Part shown: positions 25,294 through 30,352 of the stretch, piece after piece | How the letters are laid out: the number at the start of each line of letters is the position of its first letter | Numbering within the stretch: position 1 is the stretch's first letter | Source of the DNA: Clostridia bacterium | GTDB taxonomy: Bacteria > Bacillota > Clostridia > TANB77 > CAG-508 | Length of the DNA: 40,000 nucleotides | Direction: 5' to 3' | Assembly: GCA_022799315.1 (NCBI GenBank) | Contig: JAAWOE010000011.1 | Coordinates: forward strand, 6,439 to 46,438 | The notes under the pieces: generated by a model | Told to the model about the DNA's origin: nothing | The model's database searches: none | The model's input: the letters and a program-made list of their open reading frames with translations, nothing else | Position numbers and translations under genes: made by a program

Positions 25294-25375
25294 ATGAGTC
25301 CGCTTCATCTTGCTGGATGATGGGCATTTTCTTTTAAGGCTTTAAAAGAAAAGCACATCATCCACGTGAAGCTAC
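25294..25375 (+). ncRNA. ATGAGTCCGC...GAGCTAC long-hairpin element, copy 1
   Basis: ATGAGTCCGCTTCATCTTGCTGGATGATGGGCATTTTCTTTTAAGGCTTTAAAAGAAAAGCACATCATCCACGTGAAGCTAC. Second copy at 30274 with compensatory stem changes. Confidence 0.5.
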
Positions 25376-25420
25376 TTTGTTGTAAAAATTAAAGAAATGT
25401 TTAACTTTGGTTTTAATTTG

Positions 25421-25573
25421 AAAGATAGTAAGTTATATGTTTTTTATGAATGAGTTCGACCTGAACAACTATGAAAAGTGCTATATTAAAATTCATAACG
25501 GATACTAATTCATATATATGTCTACAAATGTTTGGAGAACGGAAGTAATAAAAAACATATACTTACTATCTTT
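25421..25573 (-). ncRNA. long-stem CCGTTCTCC/GGTCGAACTC element, copy D (reverse orientation, degenerate core)
   Basis: On the plus strand, arms AAAGATAGTAAGTTATATGTTTTTTA and TAAAAAACATATACTTACTATCTTT enclose AATGAGTTCGACC ... TTGGAGAACGGAA. The CAAGGCG/CGCTTTG helix is missing. Confidence 0.45.
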
Positions 25574-25593
25574 ATTAAGATAATTAATTAAAT

Positions 25594-25623
25594 GAATAAA
25601 AAATATTAAAAAACCGCACACTA
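25594..25623 (+). promoter_or_regulatory. candidate forespore sigma-G/F-type promoter of gpr (GAATA-18-CACACTA)
   Basis: GAATA 25594-25598, 18-nt spacer, CACACTA 25617-25623. gpr is forespore-expressed in Bacillus. Confidence 0.35.
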
Positions 25624-25649
25624 ACTAAAAGAGAAAGTGAGGTTTTTTT

Positions 25650-26589
25650 ATGTATAATTTTAGAACGGATTTAGCGTTAGAAAGAAGAAATCTTTATAAA
25701 AAAGCAAACAGTATTGAAAATGAGATTGATGGAGTTGAAACAGAGGAGGAAGATGTAGGGGAAAATATTAAGATATCTAGGGTAAAGGTTGTTAATAAAA
25801 ATGGAGAAGAAGCAATTGCAAAACCAATAGGAGACTATATTACAATAGATATTAAAAAACTAAAAATTGCAACAGATGAAGATATACGGTAAAGCAGCAG
25901 AAGTGTTAACAAAAGAACTTAAGAGTTTATTAGAAAAGCATGTACAATCAAAGGATGATATATTAGTTGTGGGATTAGGAAATATTTATGTTACACCAGA
26001 TTCATTAGGACCAAAAGTAATAAATGAGATAGATGTAACAAGACATATTTTAACATATATGCCAAATGTACTATCAGAAGATACAAGACCAGTTAGTGCG
26101 GTTTCTCCAGGAGTTTTAGGAACCACAGGAATTGAAACTTTAGAAATTATAAAAGGTATAGTAGAAAACATCAAACCAAAGCTATTAATTGTAATAGACG
26201 CATTAGCTTCTAGAAGTATTGAAAGGATTAGTAGTACAATTCAGTTAGCAGACACAGGAATTACACCTGGTGCTGGTGTAGGAAATACTAGAAAAGATTT
26301 AAGCATGGAAACCTTAGGTATCCCTGTAATTGCATTAGGTATTCCAACAGTTGTAGAAGCGGCGACTATTGCAGCAGATAGCCTAGATTTATTTATAAAT
26401 AAGCTACAAGAAAATGCAGAGTCAAATGAATTTTTAAATAAGTTTCAGGAAGAGGATAAATATGCAATGATAAAAGAGGTACTGGCTCCTGAAGATTTTA
26501 ATTTTATAGTAACACCTAAAGAAATTGATGATTTAATAGAAAACATGAAAGACGTTGTTGCAAGAGGAATTAACTTTGCAGTAAATTAA
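25650..26589 (+). CDS. gpr: germination protease GPR, intact only with a +1 shift at 25887
   Basis: N-terminus MYNFRTDLALE. ORFs 25650..25892 and 25867..26589 join as KIATDEDI-GKAAEVLTKEL. GLGN and ITPGAGVGN motifs lie downstream. Confidence 0.85.
25887..25889 (+). other. 0-frame CGG / +1 frame break (ATA-C-GGT)
   Basis: gat ata C ggt aaa gca gca: the 0 frame reads CGG TAA. Confidence 0.8.
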
Positions 26590-26623
26590 GTTATTATAGT
26601 TTATAAATTAAATTATGCAAGAT

Positions 26624-26659
26624 GAAAGCCCATATTTCATAAATGAAGTATGGGCTTTC
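26624..26659. terminator. bidirectional terminator between gpr and cassette 3
   Basis: GAAAGCCCATA / TATGGGCTTTC stem with a 14-nt loop. Confidence 0.65.
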
Positions 26660-27938: not shown

Positions 27939-28021
27939 AAATTAATCCTTTCAATAAGAAACATACAAAAGGCCCCTTTATTTAAAGGGACTAGCGTGCA
28001 AAGCACGACTTGTGGGCTATT

Positions 28022-28990
28022 TTATTTGTTTAAATTTTTATTTGTTTCTTTTTCTTCATTATATCTATCTATAAAGTATAGAGGACGTCCTTTAGTTTCA
28101 TAAAATGCTCGTCCAAGATATTCTCCAATAACACCTAAGAAGATTAATTGTATTCCGCCTAAGAATAATATTACTACCATAGTTGATGAGTAACCTGGAA
28201 CATCTATACCATTAAATAAAGTTTTAAATATAATCACTAACATATAAATAAAACCAGCAATTGAAATTAATATACCAAGTAAGGCAGACCATCTAAGAGG
28301 AGCTGTTGTAAATGAAGTTAGACCATCTATAGAAAGATTTACTAATTTACCATAGTTCCATTTGGTTTGCCCTGCAGCACGAGGGTCTCTATCATACAAT
28401 ATTTCTTTTTTGTTATAACCAATAAAACTAAATAAACCTTTTGTATAACGTTGAGATTCACGAATAGATTTTAGGGCTTCTACACAACGTCTATCAAGAA
28501 GCCTAAAGTCTCCAGTATCTTTTTGTATTTCTATATTTGTAACACTTTGAAGCATTTTATAGTACATTTTTGAGGTGAACTTTTTCATAAATGTTTCGCC
28601 TTTTCTAGATTTCCTTTTGGCATAAACATCATCATAACCATCTTCCCAGTATTTAAGCATTTGGGGGATAAGTTCAGGAGGGTCTTGTAAATCTGCGTCA
28701 ATTATAACAACACAATCACCTTTTATATAGTCAAGACCTGCAATCATTGCTATTTCTTTACCATAGTTTCTAGATAAATTTAAGTAGCAAAATCTAGAAT
28801 CTTTTTTTCTCAAATCCTGCATAATTTTTAAAGTATCATCTTTACTTCCATCATTAACTAATAAGACTTCAAAATCATACATGGATTGTTCATTCATTAT
28901 TTTTACTAATCTATCATACAATAAATTTAATACGTCTTGCTCATTATATGCAGGAACAAGAATCGTAACCAATTTTTTGATATTTTCCAT
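28022..28990 (-). CDS. family 2 glycosyltransferase (bactoprenol/dolichol-phosphate hexose transferase-like) with C-terminal TM helices
   Basis: Start moved to ATG 28990 (MENIKKLVTILVPAYNE) behind GGAGGT RBS. DGSKD and DADLQD motifs. Confidence 0.8.
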   Translation of the reverse strand: MENIKKLVTILVPAYNEQDVLNLLYDRLVKIMNEQSMYDFEVLLVNDGSKDDTLKIMQDLRKKDSRFCYLNLSRNYGKEIAMIAGLDYIKGDCVVIIDADLQDPPELIPQMLKYWEDGYDDVYAKRKSRKGETFMKKFTSKMYYKMLQSVTNIEIQKDTGDFRLLDRRCVEALKSIRESQRYTKGLFSFIGYNKKEILYDRDPRAAGQTKWNYGKLVNLSIDGLTSFTTAPLRWSALLGILISIAGFIYMLVIIFKTLFNGIDVPGYSSTMVVILFLGGIQLIFLGVIGEYLGRAFYETKGRPLYFIDRYNEEKETNKNLNK

Positions 28991-29084
28991 AAAAAAACCT
29001 CCATATGAATTATTATATCTCATAATTCGCGTGGAGTAAACCGTTTTTTTATAAAAAAACTTGTTATAATGTTTAATACAATCT

Positions 29085-29247
29085 ATGGACATATAGTAAT
29101 ATAATATTAAAAATTCCGTTCTCCAAGGCGTTTTAGTGCAATTGGTTTAAAGGAATAATGTAACACACTATACAGAGCAGAAGAAATATCGACGCTTTGC
29201 TCAGTATGGTCGAACTCATTTTTACTATTATATTACTATATGTCCAT
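29085..29247 (+). ncRNA. long-stem CCGTTCTCC/GGTCGAACTC element, copy B
   Basis: 163 nt. Arms ATGGACATATAGTAATATAATATTAAAAA and TTTTTACTATTATATTACTATATGTCCAT around the conserved core. Confidence 0.55.
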
Positions 29248-29297
29248 TAAACTATTATCTAGTACCAAAATTTAAAATTATTTATACAGAAAAATAA

Positions 29298-30156
29298 TTA
29301 TTCTTTTGTAGCAACATTATTAGTCATTCGATAAATTCTACAAATATCACAGTCGTTACAAACAGTTACTCTATTTTCAAAAATTAATTTTAGGGTGTTA
29401 ATGAATTCATCTTCATAGTTGTTAGCTAAATGAATATATAGTTTTTGAGGTAATAAATTAAGTAGGGCATTTAAACAATAATCATTTGAAGAAAAAGAAA
29501 TATCTGAAAGATATTTTGCATCAAATAATTTATCATCTGTTTGAATAATGTTTTTATTTTTATCTAAAAGAATAGATTCATTATTAACGTATACGAGATG
29601 GATATAATCTGTCAAACTTTCTTTAGAATTTACATATAAGCGCAAAATATTAATAAACTCATAATATTCTTTTTCTATTAAAAAGTTATTTACACATAAA
29701 TCAGCAACATAGTCTAATACTTTTTTGTAATTTTCAAGTCTAAAGTTTATAAAACCATTTAAAACAATAGAATGGTGTTCTGAACAATATAGAGATAAGG
29801 CATTATAGATACTTTCATACTTTTCTTTATAAATTTCTTTATCAGAGATACCTAAATCTAAGCATTCGTCAAGTATTTGTTTTGCTTCAACATTATCAAA
29901 ATAAAAGTAGTTATAAGAAATAATGTTTTTAATTATTTTTTTCTCATAAAAAAATAATATACATTTTGTAAGAGTATCGCATAATATTTTATAGAAAAGG
30001 GAAATATTATCTCCGTGAGTAATGAATAATAACATTGTCATAAATTTTAAAAGTATTATTAGATAAATAAATGCCATCTAAATCTATGTTAGAAAAATCT
30101 TTTAGTAGATAGTCTATTACATACTTATTATTAGACTTAATGCACATAGATTTCAT
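29298..30156 (-). CDS. YtxC-like sporulation protein, intact only with a +1 shift at 30015
   Basis: A short ORF (ATG 30156 behind AAAGGAGA RBS, MKSMCIKSNNKYVIDYLL...NVIIHYS) ends CGG AGA TAA. The +1 frame continues GDNISLFYKILCDT into ORF 29298..30077. The FINFRLENY...EYYEFINILRLYV region resembles the YtxC family. Confidence 0.6.
30013..30015 (-). other. 0-frame CGG / +1 frame break (TCA-C-GGA) on the minus strand
   Basis: Sense strand reads cat tac tca C gga gat aat. The extra base is plus-strand G30015. Confidence 0.7.
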
Positions 30157-30273
30157 ATAAAAAATCTCCTTTCATACCTGTAAAAATAGTATCTACCAAA
30201 ATTTTTTAGATATACATTATTTTATGCAATATGTATGTATTTGGAAACTTGTTTAAAATTAATAAAGTTAAAT

Positions 30274-30352
30274 ATGAGTCCGCTCCATCTTACTGGATGT
30301 TCAGCATTTTTTTTTAAGGCTTAAAAAAAGCAGAACATCCACGTGGAGCTAC
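30274..30352 (+). ncRNA. ATGAGTCCGC...GAGCTAC long-hairpin element, copy 2
   Basis: ATGAGTCCGCTCCATCTTACTGGATGTTCAGCATTTTTTTTTAAGGCTTAAAAAAAGCAGAACATCCACGTGGAGCTAC. Confidence 0.5.

Follow-up and report, generated by a model that had tools for sequence, protein, structure and literature searches.

Two hairpin repeats in the window

The window, by which we mean the whole 40,000-nt stretch analyzed here (G000:C2:6439-46438), belongs to a 1.565-Mb, 47-contig assembly of a Clostridia bacterium with 28.3% G+C. The subject of this work is a short palindromic repeat, referred to below as the hairpin element, which is found in the window as two full copies on the plus strand. Copy 1 (25297..25377, conserved core 25299-25372) lies between a gene end at 25263 and an ORF start at 25650 and carries a short AT-rich apical module. 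Copy 2 (30277..30354, conserved core 30279-30349) is situated between two minus-strand genes, 29298-30077 and 30419-31525, so that both copies are intergenic. The two are 84% identical over ~80 nt, and the similarity ends a few bases outside the element. Either strand of each copy can fold as a single long, imperfect hairpin, with predicted minimum free energies (MFE) of -34.4 and -29.4 kcal/mol for the plus strands of copies 1 and 2, respectively (z of about -5.5; none of 200 shuffled sequences folded as well).

The conserved core comprises a 6-bp outer helix (GCTYCA/TGRAGC), an asymmetric internal loop in which TCTTGCT stands opposite ACG, giving four extra bases on the 5' arm, and the start of an inner helix, GGATG/CATCC, with a mismatch retained ~10 bp further in. 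An earlier description made without database searches, here called the sequence-only reading, had placed two plus-strand hairpins at these sites, which agrees with the copies and folds found. The T>C change matched by A>G that it saw in the outer helix is real, GCTTCA/TGAAGC in copy 1 being replaced by GCTCCA/TGGAGC in copy 2. Its three consecutive compensatory substitutions in the inner helix (ATG>TTC matched by CAT>GAA) are indeed compensated, but they consist of two substituted pairs around an unchanged T-A pair; the compensated pairs between the window copies are thus three in all and not consecutive. The unpaired stem position is kept in both copies, as had been described. ATGAG, in contrast, which had been taken as the 5' end of the element, is flanking sequence shared by only ~5 of 40 copies, and only A(A/G) is conserved before TCCGC. 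In the window, two is the count of full copies; a third one, truncated, is present at 7049..7066 on the minus strand as a solo left box (TCTGCTTCATCTTGCTGG), ~60 nt from a repetitive extragenic palindromic (REP) sequence of the GTAGGGG type.

A dispersed intergenic family

Iterated nhmmer searches of the genome gave 84 matches, each palindrome also matching on the opposite strand, which correspond to 44 loci, 40 of them full length. The elements measure ~75-86 bp, contain no ORF and form an imperfect inverted repeat over their entire length, as is the case for miniature inverted-repeat transposable elements (MITEs). By information content, the conserved element reads A(A/G)-TCCGC...GAAGC-TAC-TT. 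All 44 copies are intergenic even though 84% of the genome is taken up by ORFs in a crude gene call (≥90 aa). Of those in tandem spacers, 16 run with the direction of the genes and 15 against it, without orientation bias, while divergent spacers hold seven copies and convergent spacers five. The division among spacer types follows the share of each type in total spacer length (chi-square p=0.86), and there is no preference for gene ends.

Degenerate forms are common. A looser scan found at least five mini copies that retain the outer box only (TCCGCTTCATC[CT]ACGTGAAGCTAC), the product expected from deletion between TCATC direct repeats. The same scan gave one copy collapsed between TGGA repeats and one mini copy with a flipped loop. 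Altogether, the genome holds at least seven collapsed mini copies and ~12 solo left or right boxes.

Distribution among relatives and evidence of mobility

In an exact scan with one genome per species, the left box was detected at 27 loci in five uncultured Clostridia/Clostridium metagenome-assembled genomes (MAGs). BLAST searches with copy 1 showed the family in five of 24 genomes of the same genus and in none of 16 genomes from four other families. An 18-mer scan with one mismatch allowed detected the left box in nine of 401 genomes of the order, with 1 to 40 occurrences per genome, while the reversed pattern used as a control gave none. All nine carriers belong to the family of the window genome, within which they represent five genera. 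Among close relatives, the number of copies lies anywhere between 0 and 53, and the phyletic distribution is patchy. Two exact 18-mer matches in viral contigs lie in coding DNA of 63-64% G+C and are due to chance; a phage origin was thus rejected.

The boxes TCCGCTYCATCTTGCTGGATG and CATCCACGTGRAGCTA are conserved in the relatives, in line with the expectation of the sequence-only reading that an element other than a generic intrinsic terminator would have conserved flanks in other genomes. The inner stem and loop, on the other hand, are unrelated in sequence between genomes and yet complementary, and the copies fold as single hairpins (39 of 45 copies from relatives; median MFE -31.6, z -6). 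The foot of the reverse strand reads (A)GTAGC, with T in 97%, A in 95% and C in 68% of cases at +1 to +3, and is variable in the relatives, where GCTAC, GCTAG, GCTAT and GCTAA are found.

Comparison of related loci shows sites with and without the element. Several copies in relatives face element-free spacers in this genome, and the element is absent from all 45 metagenomic loci related to the window region. The spacer orthologous to that of copy 1 is ~60 nt long and empty in contigs L127 and L132, compared to 386 nt here. These comparisons were read as presence or absence only, the spacers being too diverged across species for exact empty-site boundaries to be aligned. Within the genome, BLAST searches with the flanks revealed no paralogous empty site and gave only other repeat families.

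The clearest case of movement comes from G415, a 1.2-Mb genome from another genus with 53 box matches. Here, the core is embedded in a homogeneous unit of ~145 bp with terminal inverted repeats of the GTTACAGTTCAGAC type, and these end repeats pair at a distance of ~130 nt throughout that genome. At the ~16 loci read, 8-bp direct repeats that differ from locus to locus lie directly outside the ends of the unit, showing that the 145-bp version has transposed with the core as part of it. This G415 MITE has more than 30 copies, many of them at contig ends (for example around position 1501 in L144, L145, L148 and L150).

Covariation in the stem and a possible function as RNA

The sequence-only reading had proposed that matched changes preserve the stem, and this holds for the family as a whole. 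In an alignment (A2) of 40 copies with a 27-pair structure, standard pairs occupy 96.6% of the cells, as opposed to 89.1% in 500 shuffled alignments. Double changes affect 13 of the 27 pairs and 59 cells (5.5 and 13.2, respectively, after shuffling), and none of five covariation measures was reached by any of the shuffles. Pairing also drops to 38-53% in controls where the partners were slid by 1-3 columns. The double changes are often shared by subfamilies, so the independent events are fewer than the cell counts.

When 95 distinct copies are taken together (this genome, G415 and other MAGs), positions 1-9 of the inner stem form Watson-Crick pairs in 91-98% of cases, each with two to four types of pair, and 61 different stem haplotypes occur. 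Position 10 is Watson-Crick in only 31% of the copies, which extends the mismatch seen in the window to the family at large.

Several copies carry changes of a different kind. The long apical module of the copy at C17:27804-27883 is the exact reverse complement of the module found in 11 other copies, the interior of the hairpin having flipped between the inverted arms. In the copies at C15:71176 and C30:3989, a G/A mismatch and an A bulge have been corrected to a perfect palindrome in opposite directions. Variants of the outer helix, the inner helix and the apex are, in addition, found in mixed combinations. The inversion, the two opposite corrections and the mixed variants point to palindrome dynamics at the DNA level.

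The observed covariation raises the question of whether the hairpins serve the host as RNA, for instance as a stabilizer, attenuator or processing site in neighboring mRNAs, with selection on the RNA fold compensating the changes. REP elements are known to affect mRNA stability, and the strong fold on both strands and the significant covariation are compatible with such a role. Further support is given by U12-G80, the only fixed wobble position, which lies beside the outer helix and, in the plus orientation, is kept by 38 of 40 copies, and by one orthologous site in two species at which the core has been kept while the surrounding spacer diverged. The variable wobble cells, however, are balanced between the strands, with 13 G-U and 17 A-C (p=0.58), and the orientation relative to transcription is random (16:15), with seven copies in divergent promoter regions. 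The distribution over spacers merely follows their length, and the copy number differs from 0 to 53 between close relatives with a patchy phyletic pattern. The element also has no T tract, no terminator call and no Rfam family. A comparison with Rfam, suggested by the sequence-only reading, gave no match in the window at gathering score (Rfam 15), and a search of four copies at E≤1 gave nothing but sub-threshold matches to miRNA precursors, taken to be noise. We therefore consider a host-useful RNA structure in neighboring mRNAs to be doubtful, and a strand-specific RNA function is unlikely. An effect on transcripts exerted in both orientations keeps a small probability. An intrinsic terminator was rejected, as there is no T tract, the terminator scan calls neither window copy, and no 3'-end preference is seen.

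The search for a mobilizing enzyme

The genome has three Y1_Tnp matches, two of which correspond to intact proteins of 150-170 aa, encoded at C27:21216-21668 and C45:35607-36119. Their best NCBIfam match is the REP-associated tyrosine transposase (RAYT) model NF047646, with E values of 4e-15 and 3e-16, below the curated cutoff. The repeat that flanks both genes is another one, in which GTAGGGG precedes a palindrome of its own, and the hairpin element is never found beside them; the same is true in relatives. The GTAGGGG repeat occurs at ~102 sites in the genome in two stem variants and is inverted around the RAYT-like genes. These loci have the appearance of a classical REP-RAYT system (G000:C27:21141-21715 and G000:C45:35607-36142), of which the window holds two REP copies, at 6939-6988 and 39139-39188. 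Two GTAGGGG REP copies also lie inside the RAYT-like ORF on C45, with the frame intact.

The presence of RAYT genes does not follow that of the hairpin element. G016 has at least 22 hairpin copies and only broken RAYT fragments, and no intact RAYT-like gene was found in the carriers G002, G009, G415, G343, G302, G328 and G389. An intact RAYT-like gene is, conversely, present in the non-carrier G011. With a different REP at the RAYT-like genes and no phyletic correlation, RAYT was rejected as the mobilizer.

These data bear on how the hairpin element relates to the REPINs (REP doublets forming hairpins) of Pseudomonas and Enterobacteria. These are mobilized by RAYT transposases and have been described with the same layout, their spacers too showing compensatory changes (Bertels & Rainey 2011, PMC3116915). 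A true REPIN would be moved by one of the RAYTs of the genome through recognition of GTAG at the start of the reverse strand (GTAGCTTCA...). Several features are shared: like the hairpin element, REPINs are ~70-110 nt long, form one long hairpin with conserved inverted ends and a variable spacer kept paired by compensatory changes, are exclusively extragenic, are random within extragenic space and have tens of copies per genome, with singlets and remnants. A GTAG at the foot of one strand may be a further parallel, although the C/G position is less well conserved in the hairpin family than the TA. Besides this fit to the REPIN description, the reverse strand of the hairpin element starts (A)GTAGC, the mini form is of REP size with GTAG followed by a 6-bp stem, and two RAYT-like proteins are encoded, albeit both below the curated cutoff. 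The hairpin family, however, flanks no RAYT gene, neither here nor in relatives, and the RAYT-like genes of this genome carry the classical GTAGGGG REP instead. RAYT presence does not track the family, with only fragments in G016, nothing in G002 and G009, an intact gene in the non-carrier G011, and no RAYT match in the five carriers from other genera, among them G415 with its 53 box matches. Other differences from REPINs are that the hairpin arms differ by fixed asymmetric bases, that the family is patchy across five genera and not strictly vertical, and that the core in G415 moves inside a unit making 8-bp target duplications. Y1 transposases are not known to make such duplications. Taken as a true REPIN, the element would be hard to reconcile with these observations, and we regard this explanation as improbable.

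The only multi-copy long repeats encoding transposase-like genes in this genome are putatively Rpn/YhgA-like (Pfam Transposase_31), as judged from sequence. This gene of ~1.1 kb has five copies that are ~85% identical (G000:C31:17689-18672, C31:3158-3991, C39:47232-48422, C34:4804-5610 and C19:2-1105). The Rpn/YhgA-like genes are not adjacent to hairpins and are found in two of five carriers and three of five non-carriers, and they were rejected as the mobilizer.

The hairpin element as probable non-autonomous mobile DNA

Taken together, the hairpins are probably mobile DNA of a MITE- or REPIN-like type, a family whose members are small, non-coding and non-autonomous. The matched changes in the stem are real, but most likely belong to an ordinary kind of element; compensated substitutions would be normal behavior of a palindromic mobile repeat.

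In a possible mechanism, a protein provided in trans would recognize the core, probably when the DNA is in a folded single-stranded or a cruciform state. Elsewhere in the stem, pairing would suffice, leaving the sequence free provided that both arms change together. The copies seen here may have spread by past transposition, and show no detectable target duplications today. The compensated changes could then have arisen by amplification of a few foldable master variants combined with arm-to-arm correction, as opposed to selection on RNA.

Several results weigh against this interpretation. No target-site duplication was found for the 40 copies of this genome at any fixed offset or length. The outer repeats of the G415 unit are absent here, with only chance matches that are mostly inside ORFs; what the mobility in G415 demonstrates is thus the transport of the core within mobile DNA, and not a role of the core as the site of the transposase. 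The searches yielded no autonomous parent or cognate transposase, an absence that is weak evidence in draft MAGs, and no pair of left and right boxes encloses an ORF. Inverted copies enclose only murG and other housekeeping genes, which were rejected as candidates for the enzyme, and neither the RAYT-like nor the Rpn-like genes track the hairpin family. Finally, the copies at C46:14508 and L005:5466 are found in two species in the same spacer, between the same genes and in the same orientation, with differing interiors. They share a double change, GCTTTA/TAAAGC, that is unique within this genome, and a core kept at one site with a double change made in place could reflect selection for a host function.

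Among known systems, the bacterial MITEs include the Correia elements of Neisseria, the RUP and BOX elements of Streptococcus pneumoniae and the Rickettsia palindromic elements. By description, as opposed to sequence, the hairpin family resembles these in being short, non-coding, multi-copy and intergenic, in having terminal inverted symmetry and a stable hairpin, in its subfamilies with swapped internal modules, and in its patchy occurrence among related species; clear terminal inverted repeats and a target-site duplication are seen in G415. It differs in that the copies here show no target-site duplication, that the searches gave no insertion sequence whose ends would make it a partner, and that the conserved part is an internal core able to sit inside other terminal repeats. 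The subterminal hairpins of the IS200/IS605 family and of its non-autonomous derivatives, the palindrome-associated transposable elements (PATEs), offer another parallel. They share with our element an imperfect hairpin whose fixed extrahelical bases could mark one strand for a single-strand DNA transposase, the lack of target duplication in this genome, and copies clustered within a few kb. Unlike these systems, in which the left and right ends are distinct, the hairpin family has a single hairpin in each element. A conserved target tetranucleotide has not been demonstrated for it, and no TnpA or TnpB is associated with it (TnpB was not searched for).

A more specific proposal is that the core acts as the recognition module of a hairpin-specific recombinase or transposase, and that the family represents a RAYT-independent, REPIN-like class in uncultured gut Clostridia with a variable cargo of up to a whole 160-nt element. 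We put this forward tentatively, as a rather unlikely extension of the mobile-element interpretation. Least probable is that the core is a DNA site for a host protein, such as a nucleoid, replication or recombination factor, with copies kept for chromosome function. In favor of this, the core is conserved across five genera, extrahelical bases and mismatch position included, while interior and exterior vary, and other repeat families cluster beside or inside the hairpin, much as REP sequences are reported to attract insertion sequences. Against it, most species of the same genus lack the element, genomes differ in copy number from 0 to more than 50, decayed, collapsed or truncated copies are many, and in G415 the core spreads as a transposon with target duplications.

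With its assignment to mobile DNA, the hairpin is removed from the list of candidate new structured RNAs. For annotators of the small genomes of uncultured gut Clostridia, the repeat family is now defined; it marks spacers that have been rearranged or expanded, and it breaks assemblies, as judged from the many G415 copies at contig ends. The core, with fixed extrahelical bases and no known enzyme, is also a modest lead for studies of single-strand DNA transposition.

Neighboring repeats and other features of the window

Copy 1 is accompanied by a divergent, short member of a 160-nt repeat family ('copy D', 25450..25544, minus strand) at a distance of 78 nt. Copy D was detected by the motif pair TTCCGTTCTCCAA and GGTCGAACTCAT, was missed by nhmmer at E≤1e-4, and is 83% identical to a similar unit beside the solo left box at C30:20691. 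It is a neighbor of copy 1 and not part of the hairpin element. The 160-nt family has ~25-27 loci in the genome, of which five of 27 lie within 150 nt of a hairpin or fragment, as compared to 2.5 ± 1.5 expected by chance (P ~0.1).

The sequence-only reading had suggested that the two families are related or parts of one composite, in part because the 5' end of the hairpin resembled the 3' end of the 160-nt family. That resemblance sits in non-conserved flank bases and does not indicate homology. Composites do exist at two loci, C46:26843-27069 and C46:40319-40540, where the order is left box, 160-nt element, right box, while the families as a whole do not generally co-occur. The two nested composites are 91.5% identical over 201 nt, which implies that the composite itself has been duplicated or moved.

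Another family, MITE-like and separate from the hairpin, consists of units of ~190 nt whose inverted ends (AAAGATTAATAAATCATAAATATTATTTTT) are 30 nt long and whose center is G+C-rich. It is found at G000:C15:23723-23900, C15:71286-71460, C37:69560-69741, C27:4000-4194 and ~6 more loci, and a unit of this kind lies downstream of four hairpin copies at a variable distance of 18-45 nt. Several solo boxes, in turn, abut GTAGGGG REPs. The hairpin thus appears to attract, or to be carried by, other small elements, and is not generally part of one composite. All in all, small palindromic elements of at least four families are interleaved in this 1.6-Mb genome.

A terminator-like hairpin at 30382-30408, with a 10-bp stem containing six G-C pairs, is separate from the repeat. 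It lies between copy 2 and gene 30419-31525, just downstream of the stop of that minus-strand gene, and is called by the terminator scan on the plus strand only. The gene order around copy 2 (window 28022-31525) is unlike that of the related metagenome contigs L099, L102, L110 and others; in relatives, gene 30419-31525 is found on the opposite side of gene 28022-29092. Two gene-order junctions near copy 2 are occupied by copy 2 itself and by a 160-nt element (29088-29244).

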